Source: Escherichia phage EJP2. Taken from it: 64,000 nucleotides of DNA. Below the pieces are notes generated by a model. It did not search any database and had not been told where the DNA came from. It was given only the letters and a program-made list of their open reading frames with translations. The translations under genes and the position numbers were made by a program. Shown here piece by piece: positions 38,270-44,380 of this stretch. Position 1 is the stretch's first letter, and each line of letters begins with the position of its first letter. The DNA lies in the sequence record OQ411014.1; one strand, written 5' to 3'.

Positions 38270-39724
38270 ATGAAAAAATATGCTATTGATACAAACGTAC
38301 TTCTAAGCGATCCAAACGCAGCAACCGCTTTCAAAGGTGCTACAGTGGTTCTACCATTTACAGTACTGGAAGAAATGGACTCCATCAAGAGTCGTGGTGT
38401 TGACGTTAGCCGTGATGCACGTGTAGCAATTCGCAATATCAGTAACATCCTGGAAGACGCGTCTCATGAAGAGATTAGTACTACTGGGGTTGATATGTCC
38501 AAACTACATCCACATTTAGATTCCGACAGTCGTCTAATGATTGTTACATCTGAAGAAGCTGAAGCACTTCTACGTGTTGCAGGTATTGATAAGTCCGATG
38601 CTGAACTTACAAAAGTTGCTACACTAATGAACAGTACTGTACCGGATGACAAGATTATTCTTGTTGCTCTAGCTACAGAATCAGTACTGGTTACTCGTGA
38701 TATCAACATGCGTATCAAAGCTATGGCTTATGGTGTTGAAGTTCAGGACTATCGTAGTGATGTTACTATTTCCGATTCTGACCTACTACATATTGGGAAC
38801 CACAAACTAGAGTTTTCGTTCTGGGATACCATTGCGGATCGTGGTTTAGAAGTTTTCAGTACTAAAGAAGGTCGTAACACTTATCAACTAATTGCTAAAG
38901 ATGCAATTCAGGATCTACTACCAGAAAATCTATGCGTTGGTGACTATCTATATGATGACACTGATTTGCTAATGGTATATGATGGAGAAGGTGATCGTGA
39001 GTTCTCTGATGGTGAAGTTGATGACACAGTGTACTCCGTGTTCATTGATGTTGGTCAACACAGTGCAATGCGTACTAAGATTTGGGATATCAAAGCTAAG
39101 AACGTGAAACAAGCAATGGCAATCAACAGTATTCTTGACCCTAATGTTCACTTGACAGTACTGTTAGGTTCTGCGGGTACAGGTAAGACTTTGATTACTC
39201 TAGCATGTGCACTAGAACTAACATTAGAGAAGCGTCAGTACGATAAAGTTATTTTCTCTAAAACCCAAGACTCACAGTTTGATGAAATTGGTTTCTTACC
39301 AGGAACCGAAATGGAAAAAATGCTTCCGAATTGTGGACCTGCACTGGATGCATTGGAATTCCTTCACAAAGATGATGCTAACCCTCAAGGTTCAATTGAA
39401 GAAATCATCAAACGTAATGTTGTACAATTCAAAGCACTGAACTTTATTCGTGGACGTTCGTTTACCAATACAATTCTAGTTGTTGATGAATTCCAAAACA
39501 TTACTCCGGCTCAAGCTAAAACTATCTTGACACGGGCAGGAATGAACTGTAAAGTTATCATCATGGGTAACTTAGCACAGATTGATAGTAAGTTTATCAG
39601 TTCTGTAAACAGCGGTTTGACCTATGTAGTTGAGAAGTTCAAAGATTGGGAAGGTTGTCGTATCATCGAACTCGAAGGTGTTGTACGTTCTGCACTAGCT
39701 GAATTCGCTGAAGAAAATATGTAA
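38270..39724 (+). CDS. phoH: PIN-domain / PhoH-like ATPase fusion (PhoH2-type)
   Basis: N-terminal PIN-like YAIDTNVLLSDP; Walker A LLGSAGTGKT and conserved PhoH C-terminal region. Confidence 0.8.
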   Translation: MKKYAIDTNVLLSDPNAATAFKGATVVLPFTVLEEMDSIKSRGVDVSRDARVAIRNISNILEDASHEEISTTGVDMSKLHPHLDSDSRLMIVTSEEAEALLRVAGIDKSDAELTKVATLMNSTVPDDKIILVALATESVLVTRDINMRIKAMAYGVEVQDYRSDVTISDSDLLHIGNHKLEFSFWDTIADRGLEVFSTKEGRNTYQLIAKDAIQDLLPENLCVGDYLYDDTDLLMVYDGEGDREFSDGEVDDTVYSVFIDVGQHSAMRTKIWDIKAKNVKQAMAINSILDPNVHLTVLLGSAGTGKTLITLACALELTLEKRQYDKVIFSKTQDSQFDEIGFLPGTEMEKMLPNCGPALDALEFLHKDDANPQGSIEEIIKRNVVQFKALNFIRGRSFTNTILVVDEFQNITPAQAKTILTRAGMNCKVIIMGNLAQIDSKFISSVNSGLTYVVEKFKDWEGCRIIELEGVVRSALAEFAEENM

Positions 39725-42568: not shown

Positions 42569-42843
42569 GTAACACTAACAGTACTATCAAAGTTGAATGG
42601 TATGATAAAGTTACTGAAGTTCGTGCTCAGTGGGAGAATAATCATTTTATCTCTGACGGCGGGTTAGCTGGGCGAATCTACTTCAGTGATGAGTTCAATC
42701 AAGAATGGAGTGCTGGTGAACCTAAGTATTCAGTACTCCACGATGATGGACAATCTTCAGTAGTAGAGTTCGATGAAGAATGTGAGGAATTTGTTTCTGT
42801 TCAATCACATTTACCAATTATCTATTACAACAAAGAGAAATAA
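42547..42843 (+). CDS. hypothetical protein
   Basis: 98-aa ORF. Confidence 0.45.
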   Translation: MEKYSKMSNTNSTIKVEWYDKVTEVRAQWENNHFISDGGLAGRIYFSDEFNQEWSAGEPKYSVLHDDGQSSVVEFDEECEEFVSVQSHLPIIYYNKEK

Positions 42844-43037
42844 TGAAAAAAGTTCTTGCAGTACTGCTATCTACTATGATAGTATCTTGTTCTGCTCCTG
42901 ATGTTAAACCTGGTGAAGCATACCAGGTTTATCCTGGACTGGTACAATTACAAATGCAGGGTGCAACGTACTCTTGTCATGAAATTCACGAAGATAATAC
43001 TCTATCTTTAATGTGTCGCAAAAACCGAATGAGGTAA
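42843..43037 (+). CDS. small lipoprotein
   Basis: signal peptide plus lipobox (MKKVLAVLLSTMIVSCSA). Confidence 0.5.
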   Translation: MKKVLAVLLSTMIVSCSAPDVKPGEAYQVYPGLVQLQMQGATYSCHEIHEDNTLSLMCRKNRMR

Positions 43038-43043
43038 TATAAC

Positions 43044-43376
43044 ATGAAAACTTCCGTACTAATTGCAGTTGATACCAGTGGTGAATACAACAACGAACAC
43101 ACCAAGAGTCGAGTACTGGACATTCTTCGTAACCTGTGTCCTCGTTCTAATGTTGATTTGATTACTTTCGATGCTGATGGTATTCTGCAATGGGATATTC
43201 CGGTGTTCCTTGAAAATAACATCGTCGGTTACGAAACCAAATCCGATTTCATGAGCATCCTTGAATATATGGATGAAACTGATTATGACCGTCAATTCAT
43301 TTTAGTTGAAAATTTTGATGGACTTCAAGACACAATTGATGTATATTCTCTGAAAACACACGGCTTTGTAGCCTAA
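43044..43376 (+). CDS. hypothetical protein
   Basis: 110-aa ORF. Confidence 0.5.
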   Translation: MKTSVLIAVDTSGEYNNEHTKSRVLDILRNLCPRSNVDLITFDADGILQWDIPVFLENNIVGYETKSDFMSILEYMDETDYDRQFILVENFDGLQDTIDVYSLKTHGFVA

Positions 43377-43420
43377 AAAATAAACAACTTAGTAAATAAT
43401 TTCATATAGGAAAACAATAA

Positions 43421-43594
43421 ATGAGCAATACAAATAAACCCCTACTGTGTGGTCACTGTTCCAAAACACTGGGTGAACATAATTCCGTTGACGCAGGGTG
43501 TCCAATTCAAGTAGGGAAACTGGTCGTGGCTTTCAGTAAATCAAAGAAATTCACTGAACATGCTCCTATTGCTAAAATGGAATTCTTTTACTAA
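43421..43594 (+). CDS. small cysteine-containing protein (57 aa; below track cut-off)
   Basis: ATG at 43421 and TAA at 43592-43594; CGHC...GC motif; weak RBS. Confidence 0.3.
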   Translation: MSNTNKPLLCGHCSKTLGEHNSVDAGCPIQVGKLVVAFSKSKKFTEHAPIAKMEFFY

Positions 43595-43741
43595 CTAACA
43601 AATGAAGTACTATAAGCCGTGCCGCTGGGTAATATCAGCATAAGACCGTACGCGACAGAAGCTAATACAGAGAGTCCCTACTCGGTATACCATCCTCTCT
43701 GGGCGATAGTACTTCACCCTTTAATTACAAGGAGTGCAGTG

Positions 43742-44380
43742 ATGAAAGACTTCAAAGATATGACCACATCAGATAAGTACTGGTACATCATCGAACATCC
43801 GGCGTTCATGAATGATGAGTTCGTTTCAGTAAACATCTGTGTTGAACCACAAAACGTATGCCCCATTACTGAACGTATCGAGAATTACAAACCACTGAAT
43901 ACTAAAGTTCAGTACTGGATAGAGTTCTGTCCTCCGTATAAAGATTCGTACACTAATAACAAATTCGTACAATCACACGATACTGATTGTGATTGTGGTG
44001 GTTGGACGTATGAAGAAGCAATCGATAATCTCTTCGATTTGGTTATCGAGAAGTACGGCTCTTACACCGACGAAGACCTAAAAACTAAAATGGGTGAAGT
44101 TTTTGGGACTACCAAACCAGTAATTTGGAAACGCAGCGTTGAGGATCGTGTCCAGGCACTACTCAAACAGCGTACATCAAATAAAGTAGAAGACCCGTTG
44201 GAATTCACTTTCTTAGAAAAAGATATCAAAAATCTAAAAGGTACACTCCATGCCTTGACTGAACATCGAAAGACTGCTAATATAGATTCATACAGTGAAA
44301 TTGACGATTGCATTCAGAATTGTAAAGTAGATATATCTATTCTGGAAGCATCATTAAAAATCGGAATGATGATTGAATGA
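43742..44380 (+). CDS. hypothetical protein
   Basis: start moved to the ATG following RBS AAGGAG (track ORF begins 43619). Confidence 0.5.
   Translation: MKDFKDMTTSDKYWYIIEHPAFMNDEFVSVNICVEPQNVCPITERIENYKPLNTKVQYWIEFCPPYKDSYTNNKFVQSHDTDCDCGGWTYEEAIDNLFDLVIEKYGSYTDEDLKTKMGEVFGTTKPVIWKRSVEDRVQALLKQRTSNKVEDPLEFTFLEKDIKNLKGTLHALTEHRKTANIDSYSEIDDCIQNCKVDISILEASLKIGMMIE

Follow-up and report, generated by a model that had tools for sequence, protein, structure and literature searches.

Rak2-like jumbo phages carry some 500-600 genes, few of which have an assigned function, and Escherichia phage EJP2, a member of this group with a genome of 349 kb, has 540 open reading frames (ORFs), 471 of them hypothetical (PMC10213699). 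Here we describe a 365-nucleotide (nt) intergenic interval, positions 43377-43741 of a 64,000-nt stretch of EJP2 DNA (sequence record OQ411014.1; the whole stretch is called the window), in which a 57-codon ORF (43421-43594) and a structured RNA element (43604-43715) lie on the + strand. The described systems closest to the RNA element are riboswitch aptamers and protein-binding operators such as the phage T4 gene 32 leader, to which we liken it by mode of action and not by membership. Like these leaders, the EJP2 element is compact and covarying, is closed by a helix (P1) around an invariant junction, and stands just 5' of the Shine-Dalgarno (SD) sequence that heads a metabolic operon; unlike the known ones, it has no Rfam family, and the cistron downstream of it differs between clades.

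For the protein encoded by the ORF, the closest described relatives are the members of family phrog_10623 (e.g. AGC34763.1 of phage PBECO4), which share with it the C-x2-C-x6-H-x6-C-P...FS.(E/K)K.(Y/F) layout, the size and the genome neighbourhood. It differs from their canonical members in being only 21-25% identical to them (alignment A9), in its C-terminal tail (..MEFFY), and in forming a separate ortholog pair with a 61-amino-acid (aa) gene of Erwinia phage Hallingskeid, which coexists there with a canonical 55-aa copy. The retroviral-type CCHC zinc knuckle (PF00098) has the same Cys-Cys-His-Cys order in a very short module, but with the spacing C-x2-C-x4-H-x4-C, whereas that of EJP2 is x2/x6/x6 and its module continues with about 25 conserved residues. 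In the PDB, the family profile has sequence neighbours solely among zinc-ribbon mini-proteins (MsrB, ribosomal protein L32 and RNA polymerase subunit P/Rpo12), at insignificant scores. Taking the evidence below together, we put at roughly 0.6 the probability that the interval holds two independent conserved features, a genuine 57-aa gene and a structured RNA acting as a leader.

The structured RNA element in Rak2-like jumbo phages

The preliminary description of this DNA, which was made from the sequence alone and dealt with the small ORF, did not mention that about 150 nt of the gap beyond this ORF are a conserved structured RNA. Across the element, the DNAs of EJP2 and Hallingskeid are 79% identical (blastn) versus 41-48% protein identity for the flanking genes, and blastn also located the element in Salmonella phages Munch, 7t3, SE_PL and PHA46 and in Klebsiella phage fENko-Kae01. 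By seeding a covariance model (R1) with a hand-curated, N-padded alignment of five sequences, MAFFT having misaligned hairpin P4, we obtained scores of 107 bits in EJP2 and 58-120 bits in 17 other distinct copies. Among these are RaK2 and KP13-7 (72-73 bits), Kaldavass (71 bits), Yen9-04 (68 bits), Serratia phage BF and pEa_SNUABM_44 (66 bits), CBB and GAP32 (58-60 bits) and several uncultured viral contigs of 100-370 kb (69-101 bits). E values range from 1e-13 to 1e-30 overall, and copies outside the training set are found at 1e-13 to 1e-17.

With the GAP32 and RaK2 versions added as queries, blastn raises the tally in the collection to 26 distinct phages (Xanthomonas phage XbC2 among them), and the element is conserved in about 27 giant phages in all. 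It is single-copy per genome in these 26 phages, none of the inspected annotations marks an RNA, and all annotated copies that were checked (RaK2, KP13-7, Yen9-04, Serratia BF, GAP32, CBB and Kaldavass) fall within unannotated intergenic gaps of 140-165 nt. The clades concerned are Alcyoneus-, Mimas- and Eneladusvirus, Munch-like and other jumbo phages, and conservation extends from Klebsiella and Salmonella phages to those of Erwinia, Yersinia, Cronobacter and Xanthomonas while the surrounding genes swap. Since it is single-copy, 110-120 nt long, supported by 18 covarying pairs and conserved amid these gene swaps, the element constitutes a well-defined orphan RNA family; a previously undescribed RNA family of Rak2-like jumbo phages is well supported by these comparisons.

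Its parts in EJP2 are as follows.

43604 to 43715, + strand: conserved structured RNA element, 112 nt, unannotated and with no Rfam family (covariance model R1, 107 bits)
43604 to 43613, + strand: P1 5' strand, GAAGUACUAU, pairing with 43706-43715 (100% paired)
43616 to 43618, + strand: P1b 5' strand, GCC, pairing with GGC at 43702-43704 over an AA/G internal loop
43619 to 43651, + strand: P2 (GUGC 43619-22 with GUAC 43648-51) around hairpin A and the invariant AUAAG.CCG
43625 to 43628 with 43635 to 43638, + strand: hairpin A within P2, CUGG with UCAG
43652 to 43662, + strand: P3 mini-hairpin, GC...GC (elsewhere CUC/GAG or CGC/GCG), weak
43668 to 43701, + strand: P4 hairpin, stem CAGAGAG 43668-74 with CUCUCUG 43695-701 (7 of 7 stem pairs covary)
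43706 to 43715, + strand: P1 3' strand, AUAGUACUUC
43716 to 43729, + strand: pyrimidine/AU-rich linker after P1, ACCCUUUAAUUACA, a pyrimidine tract followed by a loose UUUAA(U/G)U motif

Across 18 distinct sequences, 96.1% of the pair cells are standard pairs and 18 of the 31 pairs change on both sides; in slid controls the number of pairs changing on both sides was 3-9, and the covariation score was 0.025-0.105 versus 0.472 in the true alignment. Given this alignment, RNAalifold arrives on its own at P1, P1b, hairpin A, P3 and P4, though not at P2; 18 of its 26 pairs are compensated. In the closing helix P1/P1b, 9 of 13 pairs covary (e.g. AAAGUACUAU/AUAGUACUUU versus GAAAUACAA/UUGUAUUUC), and columns 13/118 of P1b read GC in 15 sequences, AU in 2 and GU in 1. 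P4 is built from at least seven different complementary stems across the copies, the clades having CAGAGAG/CUCUCUG, CAGGGU/ACCCUG, CAUUGAU/AUCAAUG and CUCUGU/ACAGAG at the same site. The 20-nt loop closed by these stems is nearly invariant and includes the conserved blocks UCCCUACUC (43675-83) and UACCA; further invariant unpaired blocks are AAGCCGUGC, AUAAG.CCG, UA(A/G)UAC and GGGCG. G-U pairs occur at columns 18/50 in all sequences and at columns 26/33, 9/121 and 13/118 in some, and R1 scores the minus strand at 12-15 bits versus 58-120 bits for the plus strand; together these show that selection acts on the sense-strand structure. Most clades have the linker motif after P1, some in a variant form (e.g. 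CUUAA or UUUUUAG), and it can pair locally with the SD. As modelled, the RNA would form a long closing helix P1/P1b around a junction of P2 with hairpin A, the weak P3, and P4 with its conserved loop.

Several results pull in the other direction. The alignments were fitted to the model structure, which inflates the pairing percentages. P2 and hairpin A are invariant save for GC/GU changes, so that they are uninformative and P2 is unproven, and P3 is weak, with 69.8% of cells paired and two covarying pairs. R1 has no hit in the Asteriusvirus loci (A4, PBECO4, WPEC3, 121Q and JNE01) or in a Vibrio phage, and absence at the locus suggests that the element is dispensable in the Asteriusvirus lineage.

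Rfam 15 gave no match to the element at E <= 1 over 3 kb and, for the isolated EJP2 and GAP32 elements at E <= 10, only noise of 8-14 bits; ARAGORN found no tRNA or tmRNA gene in the whole window. The literature consulted (PA5oct non-coding RNAs, the EJP2 paper, a jumbo-phage survey and searches with sequence strings) held nothing on the ORF or the RNA element. All 36 bacterial and four viral matches to a degenerate pattern failed the covariance model, and the gapped exact pattern AGACCGTACGC...CCCTACTCGG, which is over-specific, matched no viral contig. The 17-mer AGTACTATAAGCCGTGC had seven metagenome matches, in six of which the similarity goes no further than the 17-mer itself. A link to tRNA-Tyr and tyrosyl-tRNA synthetase (TyrRS) was considered and dropped, as the GUA triplet seen in the hairpin A loop of some clades is not conserved, TyrRS is not nearby in other clades and the ARAGORN result was null. 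A TyrRS gene does lie 0.2-2 kb upstream of the element in Mimasvirus, Eneladusvirus and Kaldavass, with no functional link demonstrable.

The 57-codon ORF and its protein family

The ORF at 43421-43594 begins with ATG and has 57 codons, and its coordinates and translation (MSNTNKPLLCGHCSKTLGEHNSVDAGCPIQ...) had been given exactly in the preliminary description. It is annotated, contrary to what was said there: the identical protein stands in the public record as 'hypothetical protein EJP02_143 [Escherichia phage EJP2]', and gene callers predict it on 10 of 10 EJP2-like metagenome contigs from independent samples. Taken alone, it would be one more small, fast-evolving hypothetical jumbo-phage gene that is already in GenBank.

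43408 to 43411, + strand: AGGA, Shine-Dalgarno-like, 9 nt upstream of the small-ORF ATG (read from sequence)
43421 to 43594, + strand: small ORF, EJP02_143, 57 aa, a Cys/His mini-protein of CCHC type and divergent phrog_10623-like member
43448 to 43504, + strand: invariant core codons C10-x2-C13-x6-H20-x6-C27-P28, putative metal site (invariant alignment columns)

Using tblastn, we found one relative, the annotated 61-aa hypothetical protein of Hallingskeid (366 kb), which is identical to the EJP2 protein at 21 of 50 aa (42%). The two phages share the order small ORF, about 150 nt of non-coding DNA, 212-aa family gene, dCMP-deaminase-like gene, kinase and NrdD. Frame +0 is the sole frame open in both, the alignment gaps (15 nt and 6 nt) are multiples of 3, and the conserved core, C-x-H-C-x5-E-H-N-x-V-D-x2-C-P-I, keeps the Cys/His positions invariant. 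Loss of the frame in related phages had been set beforehand as the observation that would speak against the ORF; the frame is kept both in the syntenic Hallingskeid ortholog and in a Hallingskeid-like metagenome contig (L093). Conservation of the frame, of the Cys/His positions and of in-frame indels raises the ORF above chance, and from these comparisons we conclude that it is a real gene, and a fast-evolving one.

A chance open frame in non-coding DNA, with no functional protein, strikes us as very improbable, although several observations count in its favour and against a functional gene. The length of the ORF is within chance, as 434 of 5000 mononucleotide shuffles of 43377-43741 (8.7%) give a + strand ORF of at least 57 codons, and differences between EJP2 and Hallingskeid are weakly skewed by codon position (20/27/32). 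Hallingskeid and L093 (95-98% identical) are the only close unbiased pair, and between them the ORF has three nonsynonymous changes and one synonymous change, none in the core, with changes in the neighbouring genes being mostly synonymous; constraint outside the core thus appears weak. The EJP2 sequence itself matches no Pfam family at E <= 0.1 and no PHROG family at E <= 0.01, and the PDB holds no significant homolog. Against a chance frame stand the sole shared open frame with its in-frame indels, an SD at proper distance, the C/C/H/C-P spacing and FS motif that are invariant over clades otherwise 23-44% identical, a profile-profile match at 94% probability (hhalign), and the presence of the same module in longer, clearly coding proteins. 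The 10 contigs of the EJP2-like population vary too little for a selection test, and having been retrieved via the identical protein they form a biased sample. A word-indexed protein search with the single 57-aa sequence returned only the self-match; megablast of the region against the phage collection gave no match because EJP2 itself is absent from that BLAST collection.

The module forms were located by regular expression and then by a hidden Markov model scan of related loci. C10, C13, H20, C27 and P28 are invariant in eight module copies from five phage clades (alignments A3, A8 and A9), as are F38 and S39 in the narrower alignments A3 and A9. The C-x2-C-x6-H-x6-C-P...FS module recurs as a second ORF of 55 aa in Hallingskeid and as 56-aa ORFs in PBECO4, WPEC3 and 121Q, these canonical 55-56-aa members being phrog_10623. 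It also forms the C-terminus of 165-169-aa proteins in Munch, Kae01 and three uncultured viral genomes (UViGs), and the N-terminus of RaK2_00514 (400 aa) and A4_484 (267 aa). Matches to phrog_10623 were obtained for PBECO4 (2.7e-29), the 55-aa protein of Hallingskeid (3.3e-15) and the Munch C-terminus (6.6e-10), and hhalign joined the EJP2/Hallingskeid ortholog profile to the canonical-member profile over 47 columns (E 1.5e-7). A profile search of 5.8 billion proteins returned seven clusters, all of 55-61 aa, which indicates a tiny family. Judged by these alignments, the EJP2 protein is a fast-evolving paralog of the Rak2-like-phage family phrog_10623.

Of the earlier suggestion that the ORF could encode a small zinc-binding regulator, the first half, a Cys/His metal-binding protein, is well supported by sequence through the invariance of C10, C13, H20 and C27; as to a regulator, comparisons with Pfam, PDB and PHROG revealed no known DNA- or RNA-binding domain in the 57-aa protein, and the evidence speaks neither for nor against such a role. 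A single metal site is expected of a CCHC-type module, and it is probable that the four conserved Cys/His residues ligate one zinc ion, in which case the C-x2-C-x6-H-x6-C-P core would fold as a small beta-hairpin knuckle. The AlphaFold2 model has a core pLDDT (predicted local distance difference test) of about 72, with short beta strands and hairpins around the ligand residues. The insignificant PDB neighbours of the family profile (E 0.18-3.2) are all zinc-binding beta-ribbon proteins (MsrB1, RpoP and L32). The protein lacks the two CxxC/CxxH knuckles on beta hairpins and the similarity to solved members that mark a zinc ribbon, and its x2/x6/x6 spacing and want of a Pfam match set it outside the zinc knuckle family PF00098 (zf-CCHC).

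One of eight hits in exhaustive phmmer searches is real (P0006), the rest being RCC1-type repeat proteins and one junk repeat; the false matches cover only residues ~11-36, via an LG..D.V.RSSPVQVG repeat. The segment 43466-43519 (residues 16-33; LGEHNSVDAGCPIQVG) mimics the RCC1-repeat consensus LG.GD.V.RSSPVQVG and pulls in RCC1-like proteins at E 1e-4 to 1e-6. This mimicry is a trap for automated annotation of the EJP2 protein.

The gene upstream of the ORF offers a candidate partner for the module.

43044 to 43376, + strand: gene for a 110-aa small vWA-like protein (phrog_26969, PHROG 2e-8), a likely partner of the CCHC module

Its product is 41% identical to that of a 111-aa gene in Hallingskeid. 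In the fused proteins of Munch-like phages, a domain of about 115 aa that starts MK(F/I)LVA(I/V)D(S/A)S(A/G)SF precedes the CCHC module; they have the DxSxS motif (DSSAS, DASGS) and weak Pfam matches to VWA/VWA_2 at E 0.002-0.005, below the curated cut-offs. The EJP2 110-aa protein has DTSGE at the DxSxS position and no Pfam match, and the first ~41 residues of its family align with the N-terminal domain of the fused proteins (hhalign, 91%, E 1.1e-6). The two parts are separate cistrons with a 4-nt overlap (ATGA) in Hallingskeid, and in EJP2 the small ORF starts 44 nt after the 110-aa gene. From this pattern of fusion and fission across sister phages we infer that the CCHC module and the upstream vWA-like product function together; the 57-aa protein would then be a metal-stabilised binding module in complex with the vWA-like protein. 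Weighing against such a partnership, the match between split and fused forms spans only ~41 residues, and EJP2 lacks the canonical 55-aa paralog, the copy coupled to the vWA-like gene in Hallingskeid, which makes the argument for its divergent copy indirect. A -1/+2 frameshift fusion of the 110-aa gene with the small ORF was ruled out by the ORF's own SD, the 44-nt spacer and the different frames.

Architectures that combine vWA with a zinc finger occur elsewhere, as in TFIIH p44/Ssl1. Likened to p44 by architecture, the Munch-like 165-169-aa proteins also have a vWA(-like) domain followed by a small Cys/His metal module; the phage domain differs in being only ~115 aa long, with Pfam vWA matches below cut-off. 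Repeated fusion of the family to a vWA-like domain provides an experimental handle on both proteins.

Position and likely mode of action of the RNA element

The interval lies among closely packed + strand genes in a window of about 37% GC, and its length of 365 nt is the true distance between genes 43044-43376 and 43742-44380; the '240-nt gap' reported earlier was counted up to an over-extended, mechanically called ORF (GTG 43619). The start at 43742 that the preliminary description preferred for the next gene agrees with where its homologs (starting MN(T/I)C(D/E)KYW at the equivalent position) and the gene calls on ten EJP2-like contigs begin. The mechanical ORF 43619..44380 (GTG, 253 aa) is too long by 41 codons relative to the true ATG at 43742, and its GTG is the GUG of helix P2. 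In phage 7t3, a spurious annotated 42-aa coding sequence (L004:2478-2606) overlies that phage's own copy of the element. The annotation is hereby corrected, as both the GTG-extended ORF and the 42-aa 'gene' of 7t3 overlie RNA.

43730 to 43734, + strand: SD AGGAG of the downstream gene
43742 to 44380, + strand: 212-aa gene (phrog_16370), first of the dCMP-deaminase-like/AAA_28 kinase/NrdD block

In all copies and whatever the flanking genes, the element starts 6-25 nt past a stop codon, and wherever a downstream ORF is listed it ends 8-28 nt before the next SD/start. The gene upstream varies by clade (CCHC ORF, acidic 112-aa protein, lipoprotein, membrane protein, endonuclease-like protein or methylase), as does the gene downstream (212-aa family gene, 73-aa ORF, 126-aa ORF, membrane protein or methyltransferase). 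The stretch from the element to the next start is too short to hold a promoter, so the mRNA of the downstream cistron must contain the element. A place in the 5' leader and a fold that is conserved, covarying and aptamer-like are traits that the element has in common with riboswitches. When copies were folded with 45 nt of downstream sequence, P1 had a probability of 0.5-1.0. GAP32 and CBB can pair the P1 3' strand and U-tract with the purine-rich SD, and in most other copies a small hairpin can arise between the SD and the pyrimidine tract that directly follows P1; apart from GAP32 and CBB, the folded copies have no conserved pairing of the SD with the element body, which detracts from a leader role.

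We rank first, at about even odds, a cis-acting leader, which might serve as an operator for a ligand or protein, as a stabiliser or as an enhancer of translation; a cis-regulatory role is inferred from the position and the conserved fold. The element would be transcribed within the mRNA and lead into the cistron that opens a nucleotide-metabolism block. Its invariant nucleotides in the junction and loop would bind a specific partner, either a protein or a small molecule, and the element would in this way control in cis how that cistron is translated or how stable it is. A more daring and rather unlikely version is that the element is a new riboswitch-class aptamer or new small ribozyme, confined to Rak2-like jumbo phages, which heads the dCMP-deaminase-like/kinase/NrdD-NrdG block and tunes it to a nucleotide-related metabolite. 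Should the element prove to be a riboswitch or a protein operator, it would provide a direct entry into the regulation of nucleotide metabolism in Rak2-like phages.

Other roles for the RNA were weighed on the same evidence. Ranked second, and in itself unlikely, is a stable trans-acting small RNA, processed from the polycistronic transcript or made from its own promoter. Several traits would suit such a molecule: nothing within the element is complementary to the nearly invariant terminal loop UCCCUACUC...UACCA, single-stranded AU-rich sequence borders the element on either side, P1 is followed by a U-rich tract, and the single-copy element is conserved whatever genes surround it. It could also draw on -10-like boxes 17-28 nt upstream in EJP2, RaK2 (TGTTATAAT) and Yen9-04 (TATAAT), but not every clade has such promoter-like boxes, and AT-rich DNA often contains them (8 found versus 4.8 expected). 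Moreover, a search for intrinsic terminators found no terminator-like site in 42800-44000, P1 would make a poor terminator since it is AU-rich and long-range, and a purely trans role leaves the fixed 8-28 nt spacing to the SD/start unexplained. Still less probable is a direct pairing of the two features of the interval, in which the CCHC mini-protein would be an RNA-binding regulator that targets the P4 loop or junction of the adjacent element, the two forming an autoregulatory protein-operator pair for the downstream operon. CCHC knuckles elsewhere bind single-stranded nucleic acid, the invariant loop nucleotides are suited to specific recognition, and in EJP2, Hallingskeid and L093 the divergent paralog ends 9-25 nt before the element. 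However, within ~3.5 kb of the locus, Mimasvirus, Eneladusvirus and Kaldavass-like phages have the element without a CCHC module, Asteriusvirus has the module without the element, and in Munch-like and RaK2-like phages other genes part the two. This uncoupled presence and absence leads us to treat ORF and element as unlinked, and gene order seems to have made them neighbours in EJP2 and Hallingskeid by accident.

Small self-cleaving ribozymes are of comparable size and have multi-helix junctions with invariant junction or loop nucleotides. That the element is one of these and processes the polycistronic mRNA between cistrons would accord with its size, multi-helix junction, invariant nucleotides, strongly supported structure and intercistronic phage site; we nevertheless deem this highly unlikely, as the isolated element matched no Rfam ribozyme family even at E up to 10 and has no cleavage-site signature that can be named. 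Least probable of all, in our estimate, is a function as DNA, whether as origin, recombination site or protein-binding site. Repeated GTAC-like cores, the direct repeat ATAAGCCGTGC / ATAAG.CCGTAC and the clustering of gene insertions around the element might suggest it, but compensatory changes preserve the helices, the G-U pairs would be A-C mismatches on the opposite strand, and R1 scores the minus strand at only 12-15 bits (plus strand, 58-120 bits). The cis-acting leader therefore keeps its first rank among these readings.

As a separate observation, positions 43550-43578, inside the 3' end of the small ORF, contain a sigma70-like match (TTCACT-17 nt-TAAAAT, with an upstream TG). It would start transcription ~15-20 nt before the element, and clades beyond RaK2 and Yen9-04 are without such boxes.

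The downstream gene and other neighbours

The block headed by the 212-aa gene comprises the dCMP-deaminase-like gene, an AAA_28 kinase, NrdD and NrdG. The 212-aa family occurs in 88 phage records, with H19, P20, C40-P41, H79 and D84-C85-G86-G87 invariant, and a half-length version (phrog_21055) is found in Vibrio and Shewanella phages of ~130 kb. It has no Pfam domain and always stands before a dCMP-deaminase-like gene, for which reason its product may be an uncharacterised nucleotide-metabolism enzyme.

A 73-aa ORF (MKAKHLAKILLENPEAEV...) is inserted exactly between the SD of the element and the 212-aa family gene in Hallingskeid (L001:4311-4532) and in one UViG (L020:2786-3004). The insertion leaves the arrangement of element, SD and ATG intact, and the insert is missing from the 95-98% identical L093 (L093:1947-1967). 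The 212-aa family gene that it displaces in Hallingskeid seems to begin anew at a TTG right after the stop codon of the insert (TAATTG).

Upstream, at 42843-43037, a 64-aa ORF (MKKVLAVLLSTMIVSC...) encodes a small product that resembles a lipoprotein in its signal peptide and lipobox Cys. Comparable ORFs of small size lie directly upstream of the element in Munch (61 aa; L002:1965-2150) and in GAP32 and CBB (68 aa; L024:3150-3356). In the EJP2-like contigs L085 and L086, a WGR-domain gene replaces the 64-aa ORF, a cassette swap in otherwise near-identical genomes. Mobile-looking genes cluster around the element in Eneladusvirus and Kaldavass (L023:2419-3351, L028:2818-3348 and L026:1826-2734), among them DNA methyltransferases and an endonuclease-like gene in which ICPxHGxF motifs recur. 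Further upstream in the window, at 38270-39724, a 484-aa protein combines a PIN_4 domain at its N-terminus with a PhoH-like ATPase in one fusion (E 1e-21 and 4e-43).

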